A stretch of 54,353 nucleotides of DNA from Candidatus Levyibacteriota bacterium (GTDB lineage Bacteria; Patescibacteriota; Microgenomatia; Levybacterales; UBA12049): the NCBI GenBank assembly GCA_038254115.1, contig JBBSGK010000006.1, forward strand, positions 1-54,353, written 5' to 3'. Within the stretch, counting starts at the first letter, position 1. The number at the start of each line of letters is the position of its first letter. Below are positions 36,699 through 47,448 of this stretch, piece by piece. Below the pieces are notes generated by a model that was not told the origin of the DNA, ran no database searches, and saw only the letters and a program-made list of their open reading frames with translations. The position numbers and the translations under genes are program-made.

Positions 36699-36892
36699 TC
36701 ACCTCTCAAGAATCAAACACTTATATCTATATCCATCCGCTTCTCTTTTCTCCTCAGAAATTACTTTTTTAAAATCCGGATAGTCTGGAAAAAATATATC
36801 AGCGTTGTAATCCCCTTCTACAATAGTTAGATAGAGTCTACCGACCAAACCTTTCTCAATTGCCTGTTTAAATATTTCTCCTCCTCCGAAAA
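36699..36892 (-). pseudogene. folA: Orphan 3' fragment of folA (direct repeat of 45308-45501)
   Basis: 36713-36892 aligns to 45322-45501 with 9 mismatches in 180 nt by manual count; no 5' half. Confidence 0.93.
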
Positions 36893-37070
36893 CTTCCTGA
36901 GTCAAAATCTTTGGTTTTCGGAGAATTAAATTTAAGAAAATCCGTCTCCTGTGTTATTTTGATTATTTACGTTACTCCTATTATTGCAAGCACTTCAAGT
37001 CCTCAAGCGTAATAAATTTTCTCCTTGAGACTTTATTATTGAAAACTGAGTAGATATTTTTGTCGTTCAT
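36890..37070 (-). pseudogene. Frameshifted mini twin-arginine protein (third paralog)
   Basis: MNDKNIYSVFNNKVSRRKFITL / frameshift / GLEVLAIIGVT*IIKITQETDFLKFNSPKTKDFDSGSF; aligns by eye to 37758-37943 and 44154-44345. Confidence 0.75.
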
Positions 37071-37757: not shown

Positions 37758-37943
37758 ATGATTTCTGATAGCTATACCATTCTTTTTTCACAACAGATGA
37801 CAAGGCGTGAATTCTTGATCCGCCTTGGACTTTTATTACTGCTATTAACAGGCGTTACAAATTTTATAAAAAATCTAGATAAGCTCAAATCATCAACAAA
37901 TGAAAAACTTCAGAAACATGATGACAGCCCATATGGGAGATAA
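37758..37943 (+). CDS. Mini twin-arginine signal protein (61 aa)
   Basis: MTRREFL, hydrophobic helix, short tail ending SPYGR. Confidence 0.85.
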   Translation: MISDSYTILFSQQMTRREFLIRLGLLLLLLTGVTNFIKNLDKLKSSTNEKLQKHDDSPYGR

Positions 37944-37958
37944 TTTAGCTTTAAACTT

Positions 37959-38387
37959 ATGATACGATTACCAAAACCGGGACAAGATGTAGGTCAATGG
38001 GGCAATTTATTGGTAGATTATTTATCAGCTGGCCATAATCCTGACGGAACAGATAAAAATGCCGATGCCCCGCGAAGCGCTGCTGTTGTCAAAGTCGCAT
38101 CCTCCGGCCCAGCTCAGTCGCTTGATATGCTATCAGGCGAGGTATTTGAAATCACCCTTACTGCCAACTGCAATTTATCTCTTGTCAATGTTCCGCAGGT
38201 CACAAGCTTTGGCCTTATTCTAAGGCAGGATGGATCGGGAAACCGCAATGTTACTTGGTCCTTTCCCGTTGCGTGGCCCGGCAGTTCTGCTCCAGCAATT
38301 CCCGAATCTGCCAATGCTTCAGCGCAATTTACTTTTCTGACAACAAGCAAAGGCAATATATGGTATCCGGGAATCATCCGGATTTAA
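37959..38387 (+). CDS. RLPxPGxDxGxWG-tagged beta-domain protein
   Basis: Paralog of the N-terminal ~140 aa of 38406-39761; LRQDGSGNRNVTW..WPG motif reminiscent of phage tail-fibre-associated domains. Confidence 0.8.
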   Translation: MIRLPKPGQDVGQWGNLLVDYLSAGHNPDGTDKNADAPRSAAVVKVASSGPAQSLDMLSGEVFEITLTANCNLSLVNVPQVTSFGLILRQDGSGNRNVTWSFPVAWPGSSAPAIPESANASAQFTFLTTSKGNIWYPGIIRI

Positions 38388-38405
38388 TCGGTTTAATATT
38401 TAACT

Positions 38406-39761
38406 ATGGCAAGACTACCGCAACCGGGAGGAGATACTGGAAACTGGGGAGAAATTTTAAACGACTATTTATCAGTCGCGCATAATCCTGACGGTTCACA
38501 CAAAAGCGGGAATGGGACAACTGTTGTTAACGTCGCATCCTCCGGCACCGCTCAGGTTCTTGACCTCTCAGCAGGGGATATTTTTGAAATAACTCTCACT
38601 GCCAATTGCAGCATTTCCCTTCTTCATCCCCCCACAGTCGGATCATTTGACGTTATTCTCCATCAGGACGGAGTAGGAGGACGGAATGTTACCTGGTCGT
38701 TCCCTGCGTCCTGGCCTGGCAATTCCGCTCCTAACCTGGCTACCGGAGTACGGCTGAGCGCTCAATTAACTTTTATAACCACTAATGGCGGCGCATCCTG
38801 GCTTCCTGTTGTTGTCAGAGATAACTTAGGTTCTGTAGGTACCATACCCGGTGCTCCAGTCATCGGGATAGCATCCCCTATTCCCAATGGAGCATTTGCA
38901 AGGTGGAGTCCCCCTTCAAGCGCGGGCGGCAGCCCGATTACAGGATATGTGGTAACGCCTACCAAAAACGGGACAGATCAAACACCAATTCAAGTGGGCA
39001 ATACCACAAGTGCGACAGTCGGAGGCTATACTACCAATGATTCTCTGACATTTAAAGTAGCCGCAATCAACCAAACGGGTACCGGACCCCAATCCTCAGT
39101 ATCTAACCCTGTAACAGTTAACTTCAGCCCCTTGGTGGTGGCCAACTGCTTCTATGCGCTTGATGCTTCCGCGCTCTCAGGCTACAGCGATGGTGACCTG
39201 ATATCGGCCGGCACAGATCTCTCGGGAGCGGGAAATACGACGACAGCCACAGGAGCAGCCCGACCGACTTTCAAAACCAATCAACAGAACGGCCTGCCTG
39301 CTATCCGCTTCAGCAATGTTACGACCAGGCTCAAAGCAACCCTCCCTTCTTTCAGACACCTGCCGGTTACATGGTTTGCTGTTATGAAGATAACCCCCAA
39401 TGGCGGAGACCGCATTCTTGATGGAAATACTCCATTTGAAGTTGGTCTGCGTCAGGGAGGAACACCCAATTTAAACATGATAGTTTATAGCAATAGCGGT
39501 TTTGCGGGACCGCCTGTTGACGCAAATCCAACAGCTACCCATCTATATGAGATGTACTTTGATGGATCAAATTCATCCATTGTCGTAGATGGCGTTGTTA
39601 AAGCAACAGGGTCGGTAATGGGTGATGCCAATCAGCAGGGAATTTCCATAGGAGAGTCGCCCTTTGACTTGTTTGAACTTTATGAATTTCAGTCACACGT
39701 CAGCACGTCTGATGCGGCCCAAATCCGTGCGTACCTGAAGTCCAAGTGGAGGACTCCTTGA
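38406..39761 (+). CDS. RLP-tagged protein with fibronectin type III and lectin/LamG-like domains
   Basis: PGAP...WSPP..GGSPITGYVV...FKVAAINQTGTG (FN3); C-terminal beta-sandwich ending YLKSKW; no signal peptide. Confidence 0.8.
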   Translation: MARLPQPGGDTGNWGEILNDYLSVAHNPDGSHKSGNGTTVVNVASSGTAQVLDLSAGDIFEITLTANCSISLLHPPTVGSFDVILHQDGVGGRNVTWSFPASWPGNSAPNLATGVRLSAQLTFITTNGGASWLPVVVRDNLGSVGTIPGAPVIGIASPIPNGAFARWSPPSSAGGSPITGYVVTPTKNGTDQTPIQVGNTTSATVGGYTTNDSLTFKVAAINQTGTGPQSSVSNPVTVNFSPLVVANCFYALDASALSGYSDGDLISAGTDLSGAGNTTTATGAARPTFKTNQQNGLPAIRFSNVTTRLKATLPSFRHLPVTWFAVMKITPNGGDRILDGNTPFEVGLRQGGTPNLNMIVYSNSGFAGPPVDANPTATHLYEMYFDGSNSSIVVDGVVKATGSVMGDANQQGISIGESPFDLFELYEFQSHVSTSDAAQIRAYLKSKWRTP

Positions 39762-42526
39762 TGGCTGCCGGCAAACCTTCTTTCACTATCACAGCCCGCG
39801 TAGTCAGTATTGACGGAGCGCCACCTACCCTTGGACATAGTTTCAAATTTTGGATATCGTACTTTGGGTACATAGACCCCAGCGCCGCACAGACTCCCGT
39901 ACAATTTGTGCTGGGCGGGAATGAAACTAATCCGATTGTGGTTAATCCGTCAACTATCGCTACTATTGATGCCCAATATTCGGGCAGCCTCGATAATTCT
40001 TTTACTAACCTTTGGCAATCCCTTATGTGCGGTTTGATATGCAGGCCTACCCAGGATTGGCAAGATACATTGGAAATTGCCGGGACTATCCATGTCGATG
40101 AAACCAACGAAAATCTGCCGTATACAGCTCGGTTATTCAAGTCTCTGCAAATATATGGTCCTACCAACGCGACGTTTATGGGACTTATGTGTTTTAGGTT
40201 GTTAGCTAACGGACAATTTCCGACATCCGCAACTGATCCCAACGGTATTCCTCACGTCTGGCCCCAAGCCCGATTCTTGCAGCGCTATATGGATCGTATA
40301 AACCAAGTAAATCCTAATCCCCCACCCCGTCCACGGCGTATTCAGATCTTCCAAAACGGTAATCCTGGTGATAACGACCGCAACTCGTGGAAAATATATT
40401 ACGACATACTCCGCCACCTGGGCACAACAACCACTCAAGCCGCTAACTTGCCTTGGGCGCCCGCCGAAATATCGCGGGCTTCGGATATCCACAAATTCTC
40501 CATTGGTCTTTATAATCCGCCTGGCTACATGTTTCCTTTTTCGCCAGGCAATCCTGGCGGCTCGTCACCCCAGGTTCCCGATGCTGCCGGAATAGCCGCT
40601 TGGGCGCAGTCTCAGGTTGATAAATTTGTAGCGGCCGGCTACACCAATCTTAGCCAGCTAACTCATATTAAAATTGCCGATGAGCCCAGCGAATATCAAA
40701 ATGATACTTTACGGGCGGTTAACGAAACCTGGACTGCCGGCGGATTTACCTCTAATAAAATGCGTGATGAGGCCACCCGTCAGACCTTTCTGACCAAGTT
40801 TCGCGATTACCTGGCCGCCCAGGGACTTACTCCGGCCCAAGTGGGATACGGGTCATTTGCAGCTGTACCCGGACCGGTTGGCAGAGGCAAAGAAAAAGGT
40901 ACACTTGTGGAACGCACCCTCTATTACTGGTCTATGAGATGGTTCTCGTATTTGGCGGCCAGATTGTACGCCGATGCCGCCGATGCTCTCAGACTAAAAA
41001 TTCCCGACATCCAGCCTACCCTAAGTCTCAATAGCTACAGCGGCATGATGTGGAAAGGCCTGGCTTTTGATCCTGCCAGCCATATTACATCACCCGACGA
41101 CGGCCAGATGGGCCACGACTGGCACGAACTTGGGCGGCTGGGCGGATTGATTGGGGTTGACGATTATATCTATGAATTCGTGATCTCCAACAATGCACTG
41201 CGGACATTTTCAAGCGTGCGCGATTACCCGAGTGGCAAAATGGCTGTCAACGAAGTAACAGTGGCAAAAGTCGGCACTGTAAAGGGCGCATTGCTCAAAA
41301 AAACATTGGTCAACGTTGGCCGTGGCGGCAGCATAATACCGATGTACCACTTTGGACCGGCCAATGTTTTTAAAGATGGTGTCGGTGCCGAAGACCTGAT
41401 TAGTGGTCCGTACGCCGTGGCAGATTATCATCGGTTATCCAAATGGCTTTATGAAACAGAAGACGACTTGCTAGCCGGTACGCCACCTTCTCCCCAAGTG
41501 GCGGTGGTGGCGCCCCGATCCACCCAAATGTTTAATAATTCAGTTCAAGTCAATGACTCCACTCAAGGCAATTGGTGGACTGGTACTATGGATTATTTTT
41601 GTGAAGCTTTGTCGCTGGTAACCGCCCTCACGCATGCTAATATCGAAAGTGATTGGATTGAAGAAGATAACTTAGGCAATGCCGCCCGGCTGGCCACCTA
41701 TAAGGTTATATACCTGACCGCGCCCTGTATTCCCGCCGAATATCAACCTACTTTGTCGGCCTGGGTTTCAGCTGGGGGTACGCTGGTAACTTTTCCGGGA
41801 GCTGGCGCTTATGACCGCTACAACAGCCCCACGACAGGCATAACGGCTATTGGAGGCTTAACCGAATCGGCGCATACCCGTCAGCCCCAAGGCAACTTAG
41901 CTACCACACCAATATCATTTCCAATTAGGGGCAACCAAGGTGGTTATGGAACAGCCTATCCAACTCCTGAGACTTGGCGAACAACCGTAGGGGCAAATGG
42001 AGGTGCCGTAGAGGCAACATTTGTAGATAACGGTAATCCGGCTGTTGTCACAAAAACTGTCGGATCCGGAAGGCGCGTGCATTTTGCCTATTTTATGGCT
42101 CAAACATACTTTCAAGGCGGTATTGGCGCGGATTCACCACAACGCCCTCCCACAAACCGCTGGAGCTTAGCTCTGCGCAAATACTTAACCCATCCCTTAA
42201 CGCTGGCAGGAGTTGTCCCTCCGGTCACTATCGACCAACCGCTGGTTGAAGGGCTGTTATTAAAATCCAGGACCTCCACGGTCGTAACCTTGCTAAACTG
42301 GCGTGCCGAGCCCGTGACTATTTCCGGCACCATCCGCGGCGACTTTGCCGGCACACGCCTTGAGGGACGAAATGGTGATATACCCTGCTCTTTCTCAGGA
42401 GGAACTGTAACCTTTGGCCCAATGGAGCTTGATGACTGTGATATTTTGGTTGTCAAACATGATGCCAGCACGCCAAAAACAGTCCGTGACTCACATGTAT
42501 TGAAAATCTTAAGAGGAGCTATTTAG
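39761..42526 (+). CDS. Large glycoside hydrolase-like protein with GH42-type trimerisation domain
   Basis: IADEP putative acid/base; LATYKVIYL...WVSAGGTLV; start ATG overlaps the upstream stop (TGATG). Confidence 0.65.
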   Translation: MAAGKPSFTITARVVSIDGAPPTLGHSFKFWISYFGYIDPSAAQTPVQFVLGGNETNPIVVNPSTIATIDAQYSGSLDNSFTNLWQSLMCGLICRPTQDWQDTLEIAGTIHVDETNENLPYTARLFKSLQIYGPTNATFMGLMCFRLLANGQFPTSATDPNGIPHVWPQARFLQRYMDRINQVNPNPPPRPRRIQIFQNGNPGDNDRNSWKIYYDILRHLGTTTTQAANLPWAPAEISRASDIHKFSIGLYNPPGYMFPFSPGNPGGSSPQVPDAAGIAAWAQSQVDKFVAAGYTNLSQLTHIKIADEPSEYQNDTLRAVNETWTAGGFTSNKMRDEATRQTFLTKFRDYLAAQGLTPAQVGYGSFAAVPGPVGRGKEKGTLVERTLYYWSMRWFSYLAARLYADAADALRLKIPDIQPTLSLNSYSGMMWKGLAFDPASHITSPDDGQMGHDWHELGRLGGLIGVDDYIYEFVISNNALRTFSSVRDYPSGKMAVNEVTVAKVGTVKGALLKKTLVNVGRGGSIIPMYHFGPANVFKDGVGAEDLISGPYAVADYHRLSKWLYETEDDLLAGTPPSPQVAVVAPRSTQMFNNSVQVNDSTQGNWWTGTMDYFCEALSLVTALTHANIESDWIEEDNLGNAARLATYKVIYLTAPCIPAEYQPTLSAWVSAGGTLVTFPGAGAYDRYNSPTTGITAIGGLTESAHTRQPQGNLATTPISFPIRGNQGGYGTAYPTPETWRTTVGANGGAVEATFVDNGNPAVVTKTVGSGRRVHFAYFMAQTYFQGGIGADSPQRPPTNRWSLALRKYLTHPLTLAGVVPPVTIDQPLVEGLLLKSRTSTVVTLLNWRAEPVTISGTIRGDFAGTRLEGRNGDIPCSFSGGTVTFGPMELDDCDILVVKHDASTPKTVRDSHVLKILRGAI

Positions 42527-42546: not shown

Positions 42547-44148
42547 CTACTGCCCATGGATGTTTGTTAATTCTCTGAGGAACAAATTGTAGTCAAATTG
42601 ATTAACCGATCCGTCATCTGTTATATCAGCTGAGAGTTTCTTTGCCGGATCTGAACAATTCTGAGCGGGCAAAGTATCGCTATAGCAGTCAGCCAATGTG
42701 TTGTAATCCAATATATCTATTTTGTTATCATTATTCATATCCCCTGAGGTAAGAGTCATTTGCGGCAATATATTTATTTGTCCTTGGGTGAATGATTGGA
42801 TACCCGGACCAAGAGCCTTAAGAAACTGATCGGCCTTAACTTTGACAGTATAAGCTCCTGTTGGGACTTCAGTACCCAAATCAACATCTCCTTTAAAGTT
42901 TCCTACTGAAGAATCAAAATTCACAGTTCCCTCTTTCGTCAAAACCAATTTATTCTGGCTATCAAGTACTTCAATCGCAACGCTTCTTTGCGATCTGCGT
43001 GGAGCTGCTGTTCCTCCGCCATTTGGATTGGCGCTGTCCCCGCCTTTTCCCAGACCATGAAGAAGAAGGTTCAGGGAAATAGAAGTTGAGACAACCGGCG
43101 CGCCGGCTAGTTGCACCTTCTGCCATTTGGATGCATTTTGAAACTCGGTTGTGATAGACGGATACATTACGGATTTACTACCAGATGCATCGCTGTCATC
43201 CAGGGCAAATCCCAATCCAAGCGTTGTTCCCGCAACAGGAGCGCTGCTTAATCCCATTGTGATCCATGGAATACGCACTTCGACGGTGTAATTGCTTGCG
43301 CTTTTTAATACAGCTGACTGCCAATTTCCATTCCAGGAAATATCGGGCTCGTTATTTGCTGATCCTCTTGCATCAAATTGAGTGTTCAATGTATTTACAA
43401 TTCCTTGATAGTCTCCCGGAGACATGCCATTGCCGCCATTATTTTGTGTATCAACAAACCATTCAACTGCGTCATCTTCCCAGACATTTCCATCCCTTGT
43501 TGTTATCTGAGACTGCACTTGGTCATCTTGCACAATATACGCTAGATACAAATTAGCGTCATCCCACATTGCTTTAACGACTATGTTATTGTTGGTAGGA
43601 CTGCCAAAGGCTATATTTTTGGCTGATGAAAACTCCTGGGGATTTCCATCAATAGTCGGCGCAAGTTGCGCTTTAACTATTGAAAAACCGGCTGGTGTAA
43701 CAGGAGACGTAGGTGTTGGTGTATGAATGACTACCGTAGGACTCGGGACAGGTGTAGTCGTAGGCGTAGGAATAGATGTCGGTGTAAGAGTGACAATTGC
43801 TGGAGTAGGAGTAACAACCGGAGTAGTCAGAGCAGTTGCAGGAGCAACTGTAGGCGCAGAAGTTGAGGCGGGCAATGCCGTAGGGGGTGGCACTTGCGAA
43901 ACAATAAGAGTCGGGGTGATAACTGCTGCTGCGACACTTCCATATATTCCTTCTCCAAAATTTCCAAAGCCGTATGAGCCTGTTGTAGTTGCCGCGTGCT
44001 GGCGAAATATTTGAGGGAACTGAAGGACAATAATAGTTATTGGAATAATTACCAATATTAGAAAAGTAGATAATCCTCGTCTGGATTTTGGGGCTAAAGA
44101 ACGGAGTTTGTAAAAGGCAGCGCTAAAAAAATATTTTAAACTGTTCAT
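42547..44148 (-). CDS. Surface protein: TM anchor, YG motif, P/T linker, CBM9-like sugar-binding domain, dockerin-like C-terminus
   Basis: APTIDG..WDDANLYLA..DAVEWFVD..YTVEVRIPW; GDMNNDNKIDILDY and DITDDGSVNQFDY. Confidence 0.82.
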   Translation of the reverse strand: MNSLKYFFSAAFYKLRSLAPKSRRGLSTFLILVIIPITIIVLQFPQIFRQHAATTTGSYGFGNFGEGIYGSVAAAVITPTLIVSQVPPPTALPASTSAPTVAPATALTTPVVTPTPAIVTLTPTSIPTPTTTPVPSPTVVIHTPTPTSPVTPAGFSIVKAQLAPTIDGNPQEFSSAKNIAFGSPTNNNIVVKAMWDDANLYLAYIVQDDQVQSQITTRDGNVWEDDAVEWFVDTQNNGGNGMSPGDYQGIVNTLNTQFDARGSANNEPDISWNGNWQSAVLKSASNYTVEVRIPWITMGLSSAPVAGTTLGLGFALDDSDASGSKSVMYPSITTEFQNASKWQKVQLAGAPVVSTSISLNLLLHGLGKGGDSANPNGGGTAAPRRSQRSVAIEVLDSQNKLVLTKEGTVNFDSSVGNFKGDVDLGTEVPTGAYTVKVKADQFLKALGPGIQSFTQGQINILPQMTLTSGDMNNDNKIDILDYNTLADCYSDTLPAQNCSDPAKKLSADITDDGSVNQFDYNLFLRELTNIHGQ

Positions 44149-44153
44149 AATTT

Positions 44154-44345
44154 CTACTTGCCATATGACCCGGATCCAAAACCTTTCGTCTCATTGGATC
44201 GCATGCGTAAAGTGCTGGAATCAGAAAGTTTTCTTAGTGTTTCCGAAATTCCTGTAATTGTCAAAAGGCCTAGGCCGAGATAAAGCAAAAATTGCTTTCT
44301 ACTCATACTTTTTGCTAATAGCTGATTTAGGTTATTTTTGCGCAT
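44154..44345 (-). CDS. Mini twin-arginine-like signal protein (63 aa)
   Basis: MSRKQFL, hydrophobic helix, tail GFGSGSYGK; start overlaps the tatC 3' end. Confidence 0.85.
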   Translation of the reverse strand: MRKNNLNQLLAKSMSRKQFLLYLGLGLLTITGISETLRKLSDSSTLRMRSNETKGFGSGSYGK

Positions 44346-45057
44346 AGGCAGGTTTTGGGTTAAGAGCAATAATGCCTATGGTTATCGTGTATAACAAAAT
44401 TATCGGCATGGCCATGATTGTCTGGTTTATGGGATCACCTGTCGGTGTAAGAATAGCCGCCACAATAAAGCTGATGAGTACAACATAGCGCAAATATTTA
44501 ATAAGCTTTTTTGGTTTAAGAGGTGTAATCTTATGAATCAGAAGCATTATTATAGGAAGCTGGAAAAGTAATCCAAATCCCCCCATATACGCGAGCACAA
44601 AAGACATATAATCTTTTGTGGATATCAAAGCTTTCACCTGATCTGTGCTAAATTCGGAGAGCAATCTAAGCGCTGACGGGAGACTGAGATAGTAAGCTGT
44701 TGCCAGCCCCATCAAGAGAAGTACCCAAGAACCCACGAGAAATTTCTCCAGCATACCGTTGAAATTTTGAGGAATAGCCGGTTCAATAAATTTAAGGACT
44801 TGATAAACAACAATTGGAAAAGAAACAAGTGTGCCAAAAAGGAAGGATATTTTGAAAACCAGATCAAACCCTCCCGTTGGAGATGTGTAATACAATGATT
44901 CATGAAGAGGAAGTGTTAGGAATTTTATAATCGAGTCACGCATGAAATAACCGAGTCCAGCTCCCACACCGATGCTTAAGGCTGAATATACCAAACGGGT
45001 TTTAAGCTCTGCAAGATGCTCTGCAAATTTTTTTTCTGAATGGGCAACTGTATTCAT
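44332..45057 (-). CDS. tatC: Twin-arginine translocase subunit TatC
   Basis: EHLAELKTRL, FGLLFQLP, AAILTPTGDP; six TM segments. Confidence 0.95.
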   Translation of the reverse strand: MNTVAHSEKKFAEHLAELKTRLVYSALSIGVGAGLGYFMRDSIIKFLTLPLHESLYYTSPTGGFDLVFKISFLFGTLVSFPIVVYQVLKFIEPAIPQNFNGMLEKFLVGSWVLLLMGLATAYYLSLPSALRLLSEFSTDQVKALISTKDYMSFVLAYMGGFGLLFQLPIIMLLIHKITPLKPKKLIKYLRYVVLISFIVAAILTPTGDPINQTIMAMPIILLYTITIGIIALNPKPAYAQK

Positions 45058-45063
45058 AGATCA

Positions 45064-45249
45064 TCAGGATTTGGAAGATTTTTTACTTTTTCCTTTTCCC
45101 TTTTCATCTATCTCTCCTGTGAAACCTTTTCGGATTTCCCGTATTCCCTCACCTATACTTCGTGAAAGTTCAGGAAGCTTCTTGCCGCCAAACAACAAGA
45201 GAATTATAACCAATATTACGATAAGTTCTTCAAAGCCTAAGCCGAACAT
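45064..45249 (-). CDS. tatA: Twin-arginine translocase subunit TatA
   Basis: MFGLGFEELIVILVIILLLFGGKKLPEL; GGAGG SD upstream of ATG 45249. Confidence 0.96.
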   Translation of the reverse strand: MFGLGFEELIVILVIILLLFGGKKLPELSRSIGEGIREIRKGFTGEIDEKGKGKSKKSSKS

Positions 45250-45307: not shown

Positions 45308-45802
45308 TTATCTTGTAAGGGTCAAAAACTTATATTTATATCCATCCGCTTCTCTTTTCTCCTCAGAAATTACTTTTTTAAAATCCGGATAGTCTGGAAA
45401 AAATATATCAGCGTCGTAATCCCCTTCTGCGATAGTCAGATAGAGTCTATCGACCAAACCTTTCTCAATTGCCTGTTTGAATATTTCCCCTCCTCCGAAA
45501 ATAAATATCTCTTCGGCTCCGTGACTTTTTTTTGCTATTTCAATCCCATCTTCTATCGAGGTGACAATTGCATCCGGATGATAAGGAAGCTTCTCGAGTT
45601 TTTGTGAATCACGTGTAATAACAATATGGGTTCTGTTTGGAAGAAGTCTCCCTAAAGATTCAAATGTTTTACGCCCCATTACAAGAGGATGCCCCGTTGT
45701 AATTTCCCGTAAACGCTTCATGTCTTCAGGAATTTTAAATAGAAGATCATTATTCTTCCCCAATCCATTTTTCTCATCAACCGCCGCGATAATACTTATC
45801 AT
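45308..45802 (-). CDS. folA: Dihydrofolate reductase
   Basis: IIAAV, MGRKTFESL, LPNR, FGGGEI. Confidence 0.97.
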   Translation of the reverse strand: MISIIAAVDEKNGLGKNNDLLFKIPEDMKRLREITTGHPLVMGRKTFESLGRLLPNRTHIVITRDSQKLEKLPYHPDAIVTSIEDGIEIAKKSHGAEEIFIFGGGEIFKQAIEKGLVDRLYLTIAEGDYDADIFFPDYPDFKKVISEEKREADGYKYKFLTLTR

Positions 45803-46884: not shown

Positions 46885-47448
46885 ATGGGAAGGAGAGTTG
46901 AGGCAGCAAGAACAGTCTTTGGATTAGCCGCCATGACCGGAGAAGCAATAGGTCTAGTCGGGATGGTGCATTCCAGCCATGAAATTAAAAATCAGCGCAA
47001 AGTACCAGCTGGTATAGTGAAAGAATTAGATGTTGCTGCTTCATTAATAAATGGTGCGTCGGTTACGCTTCATGACCCCAAAAGTGGTAAGTCCTTGGTT
47101 GAAGCTCATTTTGGTCCTAATAAAGAATTTACGATAATAGCTTTAAAACATGCAGAAGAAAAGATTGAAAAAGCAGGCGGAGACATTGCGTCTGTAGAAG
47201 AATTAATATCTGAGACCTCACAACCGGACTCCACTCCAAGTGATATATATGACCATGTCCGAGCTGCAGAAAACCCTTTTAAGGAAAAAATCGATAGATT
47301 AGATAAAAAAATGGGGGACAATGAAAATAGAGGACTTGTCTTACTTATGGGTGAAAGTGCAACAATAAGTAGGTTTAGGGATAGAATTACACGCAATCGA
47401 AATAAAAGGAGAGAAAATCGCCGAAGACGACTTAGTCTTGCTAGCTAA
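46885..47448 (+). CDS. Hypothetical protein
   Basis: 187-aa ORF with TGnTATAAT a few nt upstream of ATG. Confidence 0.65.
   Translation: MGRRVEAARTVFGLAAMTGEAIGLVGMVHSSHEIKNQRKVPAGIVKELDVAASLINGASVTLHDPKSGKSLVEAHFGPNKEFTIIALKHAEEKIEKAGGDIASVEELISETSQPDSTPSDIYDHVRAAENPFKEKIDRLDKKMGDNENRGLVLLMGESATISRFRDRITRNRNKRRENRRRRLSLAS

Follow-up and report, generated by a model that had tools for sequence, protein, structure and literature searches.

Two adjacent genes, here called A and B, lie on a 54,353-nucleotide (nt) contig from Candidatus Levyibacteriota bacterium (GenBank assembly GCA_038254115.1, contig JBBSGK010000006.1), which was analysed whole and is referred to as the window. Both products begin with the same short tag and continue into a domain resembling those of phage tail fibres, and genes for twin-arginine translocation (Tat) lie nearby. 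A sequence-only reading of the window had proposed a portable targeting or oligomerisation tag, and the question raised by the locus is what such a tag would do beside a Tat translocase. From gene content and modelling, our answer is that a stand-alone Tat-type signal protein of about 60 amino acids (aa), here called S, probably serves tagged proteins in general as a carrier: it would bind their trimers once these have folded and bring them through Tat to be displayed on the surface.

A and B proved to be the tandem paralogs that they had been taken for, and the two N-termini quoted in the sequence-only reading were correct to the letter. The products are identical at 79 of 141 residues (56%, E 5e-54, BLASTP) over the tag and a beta domain of about 100 aa. 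A ends after this common part, as described earlier, and B extends with an FN3 domain (PF00041, aa 165-233, over the cut-off) and a LamG/concanavalin-like domain (Atlas feature score 0.97; PF13385 on 21% and 100% of the members of two clusters); the end formerly given for the pair, position 38830, takes in only the common part of B. No signal peptide was seen in B. A and B were the sole tag-bearing open reading frames (ORFs) detected in the genome, and A departs from the tag family at a nearly invariant Asn (N19 to Val).

The domain common to A and B is a phage tail-fibre domain. It matched the PHROG tail-fibre families 9017 and 7760 (E 1e-10 and 6e-7 for A) and 83 phage records, several of which are annotated as tail fibre. 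PF26209 (Phage_phiTE_241_C) was precomputed on B, and the domain reached an Atlas score of 0.96 to clusters carrying PF26209 on 35-51% of their members. A Pfam scan of A gave no PF26209 match, a search of PDB sequences with the domain gave none, and IMG/VR gave two marginal loci only. A was modelled from a 21-row alignment (pLDDT 84) as a tag helix (residues 14-25) followed by a beta sandwich. The structures closest to this model were phage chains: the Pa223 capsid spike (Z 8.0, root-mean-square deviation (rmsd) 2.7, 92 residues aligned), the KP1 baseplate and the Solidus tailspike (Z 7.6 each), and residues 79-180 of CBA120 TSP4 (Z 7.2, rmsd 3.4, 93 aligned). Five phage chains and CpaA scored Z 7.1-8.0 and the next unrelated row 3.9, a Z near 8 being attained also by common fold arrangements; Foldseek agreed with the alignment to phage chains. 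TSP4 79-180 is XD1, a trimeric domain of the T4 gp9/gp10 type that has been described as an apparent spacer, with a fold that also serves glycan binding (PMC8825819). By domain content, B reads as a short adhesin with tag, XD1-like spacer, FN3 and LamG-like tip, and A may be a minimal short fibre in its own right, with the XD1-like domain as its tip. The earlier proposal for A, a spacer or co-oligomerising subunit of B, may also apply, given its resemblance to XD1.

The tag had been predicted to be portable, N-terminal and independent of normal signal peptides, and wider sampling bore this out. A 55-row profile of the tag matched 6,670 clusters at 50% identity, and residues 1-40 of B retrieved 94 proteins among 96 candidates, 248-790 aa long and with varied Pfam labels or none. 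The 100 aa that follow the tag fell into 86 single-linkage groups (211 proteins; the largest group held 93), and the Pfam labels behind it include pectate-lyase beta-helix, SGNH, collagen, DUF5907, PF12789 and PF07212. The tag begins within the first three residues of 229 of 240 proteins; in most of those where it lies further in, the called start precedes a Met located at the tag, and repeats or internal copies were seen in five. A hydrophobic 12-mer within the first 60 aa was present in only 2 of 236 tagged proteins, and a C-terminal transmembrane (TM) helix in none of the 236. A scan of GTDB contigs confirmed 391 stretches, and of the 76 loci kept most were titled Saccharibacteria. Neither the tag profile nor that of its phage counterpart (below) matched PDB sequences, and against PHROGs one of 55 members gave a match, at E 0.19. 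Some proteins carry several tags: P0216 has three in tandem ahead of a glycosyl hydrolase domain (pLDDT 35 in a single-sequence fold), P0219 has three near its C-terminus behind a leader of the general secretory (Sec) type, and a 1920-aa subtilase (L152:98-5857) has at least two. Three repeats in one chain (P0216, P0219) would mimic a trimer.

The tagged genes belong to a module that comprises tatA, tatC, the S gene of about 60 codons, tagged cargo without a signal and, in many cases, a surface protein exported by Sec; the order tatA-tatC-S-tag was repeated in four relatives and in many Saccharibacteria loci. The S family holds 984 proteins with the consensus L..LL.K.M-[DSTN]-R-[KR]-x-F-L, a hydrophobic stretch (h-region) and a terminal G[YF]GxxxYG, the YG motif, with which the surface protein of the module starts. 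The Phe and the final YG are invariant in 149 aligned rows, and the YG pattern was matched by 147 of them. In the aligned loci S is 49-75 aa long, with 43-63 aa from the Tat motif to the end and no passenger domain. Among the 29 S copies that lie 4 kb or more away from tatC, or on a contig other than its own, at least 12 are no more than 250 nt 5' of a tag gene, as counted by eye among the matches listed.

In the genome of the window, which is 95% complete, two S genes (S1 and S2) were the only ORFs with a Tat-type motif near the start and an h-region. The Tat signal model TIGR01409 gave no match in five of five TatC-bearing genomes, this one included, and was positive in 12 of 14 controls. 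Since no other Tat substrate was found by the motif screen of the genome or by TIGR01409, the TatAC translocase appears to have no substrate besides S and what S holds. Variants of the pair were also observed. S1 lacks the first half of the YG motif and A the conserved Asn19, which may mark a co-diverged pair or early decay. An S variant ending in FGS[SR]KFGV (L323:7871-8369) lies 5' of a divergent tag class in G360, and only this type of S, with no tag detected, was seen in G462 and G489 (L318, L319); these may be cognate S/tag subtypes. Longer proteins with RR-type N-termini were noted at L125, L127, L128 and L129, in genomes in which TatC was not found (G145, G072, G140) and in the TatC-bearing G043. 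A Sec-exported family of about 190 aa starting PFGxGxFGA is encoded near several tat loci (L068, L142, L164, L318, L323).

The link between tag and Tat, suggested earlier from the window alone, stood in three sets of genomes. Among 41 relatives, the tag was found in 5 (single-protein query), TatC in 6 and S in 5, and the five coincide; the S positives were query rows, and the informative part is the 36 negatives. In a phylum sample of 261 genomes the tag was found in 10, TatC over the cut-off in 14 and S (E <=1e-5) in 10, tag and S being in the same ten genomes, all with TatC. G200 is an eleventh case, in which tatAC is accompanied by a weak S and a divergent tag. With the genome of the window removed, all 9 tag-positive genomes had TatC, against 4 of 251 tag-negative ones (Fisher 5e-14), and by family all 7 tag-positive families fell within the 9 TatC-positive of 119 (6e-10). 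In a class sample of 201 genomes the counts were 59 for the tag, 62 for TatC and 60 for S (four of the S positives were query rows). All three were present in 58, the tag only in G377, TatC and S in G462 and G489, TatC only in G338 and G371, and none in 138. Tag and TatC thus occurred together in 58 genomes, the tag alone in 1, TatC alone in 4 and neither in 138 (Fisher 2e-44; kin are non-independent in every one of these tests, so the values overstate). S was found in 60 of 62 TatC-positive and none of 139 TatC-negative genomes; 58 of 59 tag-positive genomes had both TatC and S, and the 142 tag-negative genomes had TatC in 4 and S in 2. Dropped from these counts were two sub-cut-off TatC matches in the phylum sample and three in the class sample, a partial S match in G338, five S matches with E >1e-5 in the phylum sample (that of G200 probably real, the other four being longer proteins) and one false internal tag match in L022.

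Tagged genomes made up about 30% of the class sampled, and within genera and families the presence of the system is patchy. Three records from other groups were noted on the side. A locus in a record titled Nanoarchaeia archaeon (L022:6573-9635) reads tatA-tatC-S-YG membrane protein-tag gene, near a gene read as archaeal initiation factor 2 alpha. A Pseudonocardiales record (L058:6434-10730) has a YG membrane protein, tatA, S and a tag gene adjoined by a recombinase-like gene, and Gordonia aichiensis has a tag gene (L043:8001-10205); the latter two may reflect transfer into actinobacteria or mis-binning.

Tag and YG motif are also neighbours in tailed phages. Ten IMG/VR loci carried the tag, lying among head and tail genes where tested. 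In 7 of the 10 (6 of 9 distinct) the adjacent gene starts or ends with the YG motif; of the other three, one has a YG motif 3 kb off, one has it elsewhere in the contig, and one, a 15-kb fragment, has none. As a control, a terminal YG motif was found in 0 of 1,195 ORFs of at least 100 aa in the genome of the window. A converse scan for triple YG motifs in viral sequences gave 123 stretches, of which 80 had flanks and 79 were usable (43 flankless, one lacking an in-frame motif). Near these a tag-like gene was defined by P-x(1-3)-G-x(2-7)-WG-x-x-[LIT]-[NT]. Such a gene was found on the same strand at 29 of 79 loci, within 150 nt at 24, and at none on the opposite strand or in the reversed control; with near-duplicates merged it was found at 18 of 62. 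Ordinary tail gene order may inflate such adjacency. The phage proteins with the YG motif include nozzle proteins (homologous to the Vibrio phage nozzle gp16, 8ZKK, E 3e-9), tail proteins and a sheath, and among the tag-like genes several had matches in families of tail fibres and tailspikes. Between the phage and bacterial tag profiles the match was 96.6% at E 6e-10, partly by construction because the phage set was picked by a similar pattern. A search with a divergent tag gave no cultured phage. In the Streptomyces phages GiJojo and BRock (L170, L171, L192) a tagged gene with varied C-terminal parts lies inside a tRNA cluster and no YG gene adjoins it; their YG motifs are in the tail sheath (an internal double copy) and at the start of a minor tail protein, from which the tagged protein is predicted to be a sheath- or baseplate-hung fibre. 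Judged by these gene neighbourhoods, the joint likely derives from the attachment of tail fibres to nozzle, baseplate and sheath proteins of tailed phages.

The same motif was found outside S in bacteria. In a group of Sec-type proteins it stands right after a signal-peptidase-like site and is followed by FN3 or other domains. These proteins end in a TM helix or an LPXTG anchor, and adjoin tat genes in relatives and in Saccharibacteria; the one in the window, which has CBM9 and dockerin domains, is proposed as a surface receptor. A profile of such receptors matched 6 of 261 genomes in the phylum sample, two of them self-matches and two matching through the hydrophobic leader only. At L066:7681-7986 a TatA-family protein with a YG tail stands in place of S, 5' of a short tag gene, and at L077:3943-4857 a TatC with a YG tail lies beside a short tag gene with no S, the only such row among 35 TatC. 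A Chloroflexota record (L044), from a genome with TatC, has a tag gene followed by a gene for a TRRRFL signal, YG motif and domain. The occurrence of YG in such varied positions points to the motif as the socket of the tag.

The translocase itself appears to be altered where it meets the signal. In the structure of E. coli TatC, E15 and F94 touch the first Arg of the signal, E103 is salt-bridged to the second Arg, and L9, H12, L13 and F94 form the packing surface for the Phe; E103A is transport-inactive (PMC13323110). Lysine in twin-arginine signals is poorly tolerated in model systems (PMC7317946). When the main clade of TatC, including that of the window, was mapped on E. coli TatC, H12 and E15 were present in 26 of 26, F94 in 25 of 26 and E103 in 0 of 26, and 20 of the 24 S-bearing loci of this clade have an R-K signal. 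E103 was present in 7 of 8 other TatC, and the three of those with S have Arg in the second position. Over the whole S alignment the motif is R-K in 108 of 149 and R-R in 33; S1 has R-R and S2 does not. Taken from these alignments, the loss of E103 together with the R-K signal fits co-adaptation. In a quick TatC tree, which carried long-branch warnings and was used only for grouping, close relatives occur across distant families.

A complex of three tags and S2 was modelled with a score of 0.35, against 0.02 for the best control, and contacts agreed by at least 80% between runs, which lends weak support to binding. The partner chain had a pLDDT of 56, and the tag chains 81-84 with S2 versus 64-67 with unrelated partners. 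Of 157 solved pairs 116 attained the mark that the model passed, as did 2 of 215 mismatched pairs; among those with scores no higher than 0.60, however, were both mismatches and only 18 of the solved pairs, counts that are rough here.

Tailspikes and collagen-like fibres fold as trimers. On the reading that we favour, tagged fibre proteins would likewise fold as trimers in the cytoplasm, and the Tat export signal would be split in two, with the tag as the part carried by the cargo: the tag trimer would bind the C-terminal YG motif of S, and TatAC would read S and move the complex out. Outside, the fibre may stay on uncleaved S or pass to a Sec-exported YG receptor. The purpose would be the display of exchangeable adhesins and polysaccharide-cutting, tailspike-like enzymes towards host cell envelopes. 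In its widest form, which we hold tentatively and at a little under an even chance, the proposal is of an undescribed secretion-display system of ultra-small symbionts (Patescibacteria, with a DPANN archaeal record too) in which the membrane now divides what was once a phage tail-fibre joint. S would offer the YG socket inside, TatC with its remodelled pocket would export trimeric spikes, Sec receptors would offer the socket outside, and swappable spikes would set host range.

Several observations weigh against this reading. S is, by its mostly R-K motif, a poor canonical signal; because lysine is poorly tolerated in model systems and E103A is inactive in E. coli, either S is no substrate or signal reading by this TatC differs. 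The match of E103 loss to R-K signals rests on about two clades and not on 34 independent events. S too escapes TIGR01409. Cargo of 700-1800 aa would be very large for Tat as trimers, and in a few proteins (P0219, L152) tags lie inside the chain, preceded by a Sec-type leader. Of the 11 genomes in the phylum sample that bear the system, only 4 yielded a surface receptor, and two of these were query genomes. The co-occurrence has exceptions in G377 (tag, no TatC) and in G462 and G489 (TatC and S, no tag detected), and the actinobacterial G492 has tatA, S and tag with TatC as a sub-cut-off fragment only; kinship, as said, inflates the statistics. The pass of the complex model was weak, with no interface returned and the YG tail not identified as the bound part. 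Finally, YG motifs on the tails of TatA and TatC would fit a resident adaptor equally well.

That alternative, which we regard as unlikely, makes S a TatB-like or pseudo-signal subunit of the translocase, with a cytoplasmic YG tail that recruits cargo and is not exported; the tag would still be a targeting signal. The TatA-family tail that replaces S at L066 and the TatC tail at L077 favour it, as do the single TatA/B gene in the window, the loss of E103 and the finding of an [AVSG]xA motif 20-40 aa past the Tat motif in only 47 of 149 S. The related NCBIfam model, NF038009 (70 positions), bears the name TatB_1; S aligns over most of it at E down to 9e-17, and five S scored 23.3 (S1), 50.9 (S2) and 46.7-61.1 bits (three others), all below the cut-off of 100. 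The anatomy of S, however, is that of a signal peptide and not of TatA or TatB: PF02416 did not match S1, and among NCBIfam models for TatA and TatB other than NF038009 none matched S1 or S2. S gave weak profile matches to the signals of TorA, OpgD and CueO (E 0.075-1.5), and its extra copies accompany cargo genes rather than tatC. In G446 an S-type signal is fused, without YG, to passenger domains, one of them GH16, which argues that the S-type N-terminus is an export signal. Longer fused forms of S were absent among 7,993 candidates, weak evidence that G446 partly contradicts.

It is quite improbable that S is an outward membrane peg, placed through Tat, on which fibres that leave the cell by lysis, vesicles or another exporter dock from outside, as they would on Sec-exported YG proteins, so that the tag is an anchor only. 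The phage pair is a structural joint, Sec-exported YG proteins with a TM helix or LPXTG adjoin tat genes, internal tags occur behind Sec-type leaders and the cargo is very large, all of which would suit a peg. Yet a peg of 60 aa would need no Tat when Sec-exported YG proteins are already available, and the cargo has no signal. The tails of TatA and TatC face the cytoplasm, and a YG motif there makes sense only for cytoplasmic recruitment. Least credible of all is a tag that is a mere trimerisation nucleus of phage-derived fibre genes, linked to tat by co-travel on a mobile island: the 185-nt duplication at its flanks, the GC content of the cargo genes (49-51% at 38-42 kb versus 39% genome-wide), the patchy distribution among relatives and the close TatC relatives in distant families fit co-travel, but tagged genes lie on many contigs (up to nine per genome) and yet almost only in genomes with TatC and S, no other Tat substrate was found, YG is kept in 147 of 149 S and neighbours the tag in phages, and the surroundings of the bacterial loci inspected held no recognisable phage structural genes.

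The features of the locus are collected in Table 1. The two copies of the folA 3' end flank the island, and the degraded S copy runs into one of them. The neighbours are the tat genes, folA, thyA, glyA, rpsB, tsf and frr, read from translations with Pfam run on 13 ORFs; no virion genes were recognised around A and B in that material, to which a whole-window PHROG scan did not contribute. Neither tag nor signal was seen in the 921-aa GH42-like protein, which is translationally coupled to B. A Pfam match to Ntox28 at 46885-47448 (+) had E 0.025, below the cut-off, and is probably due to chance.

Table 1. Features of the tat locus and island in the window, by position.
Feature	Position	Strand	Model match
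185-nt copy (94%) of the folA 3' end (45317-45501)	36708..36892	.	
Third, degraded S copy spread over two frames: SRRKFI n-region in one; in the other, a stop-containing hydrophobic stretch and YG-like end	36883..37070	-	
S1: 61-aa stand-alone Tat-type signal protein, TRREFL, h-region, degenerate YG end (SPYGR), directly 5' of A	37758..37943	+	NF038009, 23 bits (weak)
A: 142 aa, tag and tail-fibre beta domain only	37959..38387	+	
Tag of A, aa 1-34: extended arm, WG, predicted helix 14-25, H-x-x-DG	37959..38060	+	
Beta domain of A, aa 40-142	38076..38384	+	PF26209 / XD1-like (T4 gp9, CBA120 TSP4 XD1)
B: 451 aa, tag, beta domain, FN3 and LamG-like	38406..39761	+	
Tag of B, aa 1-34; query for family searches	38406..38507	+	
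921-aa protein, GH42-type trimerisation domain, ATG overlaps B stop	39761..42526	+	
533-aa Sec-type protein: YG motif at aa 57-71 (43936-43980) after hydrophobic leader, then CBM9 and dockerin	42547..44148	-	
S2: 63-aa stand-alone Tat-type signal protein, SRKQFL, h-region, GFGSGSYGK end, overlaps tatC end	44154..44345	-	NF038009, 51 bits, cut-off 100
tatC: H12, E15 and F94 equivalents present, E103 absent	44332..45057	-	PF00902, E 5e-54; TIGR00945 over cut-off
tatA: single TatA/B-family gene at the locus	45064..45249	-	PF02416; TIGR01411 over cut-off

If the carrier reading is true, it gives Tat a role in Patescibacteria that are without ordinary Tat substrates, and it marks out a large set of surface proteins, open to sequence search, as candidates for host recognition and capsule cutting. 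A generic adaptor would turn one Tat signal into many, served by a natural TatC that does without a residue essential in E. coli, and the 34-aa tag would be on offer for exporting pre-assembled trimers. The work also defines a short attachment pair of phage tail fibres, a WG anchor and a YGxGxYG loop, for which no prior description was found. In the literature searched, which left most subscription journals and supplements outside, neither the tag nor the YG motif nor the system was found described. TatA and TatC have been reported from freshwater members of the candidate phyla radiation (Microgenomatia, Paceibacteria and Saccharimonadia), with no substrates, S or tag named in the accessible part of that source (PMC9166423). 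A relative of S has already been noticed beside tat genes, as the model NF038009 implies; S is probably related to that TatB_1 model, although below its cut-off, the label is silent on a cargo tag, and no paper on the model was found.

Among known systems, the T4 proteins gp9 and gp10 and CBA120 TSP4 show a comparable layout, with an XD1-type beta domain behind a trimeric anchor at the N-terminus (PMC8825819), but the present tag has no PDB sequence match and sits in a bacterial tat locus without recognised virion genes. WceF of Pantoea stewartii, a tailspike-like beta-helix trimer with a predicted Tat signal, is a precedent for trimeric spikes using Tat; it has its own signal and, from the accessible text, no carrier, tag or receptor (PMC7949094). 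The canonical pairing of an R-R signal with an E103-bearing TatC differs from the mostly R-K S and its TatC without E103. The closest parallel is hitchhiker co-export, as in E. coli HybOC and in PaoABC, where a signal-bearing partner carries signal-less, pre-folded partners through Tat (PMC4273604). TatA and TatC are encoded here too and the cargo has no signal of its own; S would answer to the signal-bearing partner by its S/T/D/N-R-[KR]-x-F-[LI] motif, its h-region and the G446 fusions, but is TIGR01409-negative. In one defining feature the two differ: S consists of a signal and a bait of 7-8 residues, whereas the signal chain of HybOC or PaoABC is, as far as that source describes it, a folded subunit of one enzyme. 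The cargo side differs as well: its tag is portable and is shared by thousands of otherwise unrelated proteins, of which one genome may encode several. The observation is real and widespread, and is probably a variant of Tat co-export with a likely phage-derived joint.

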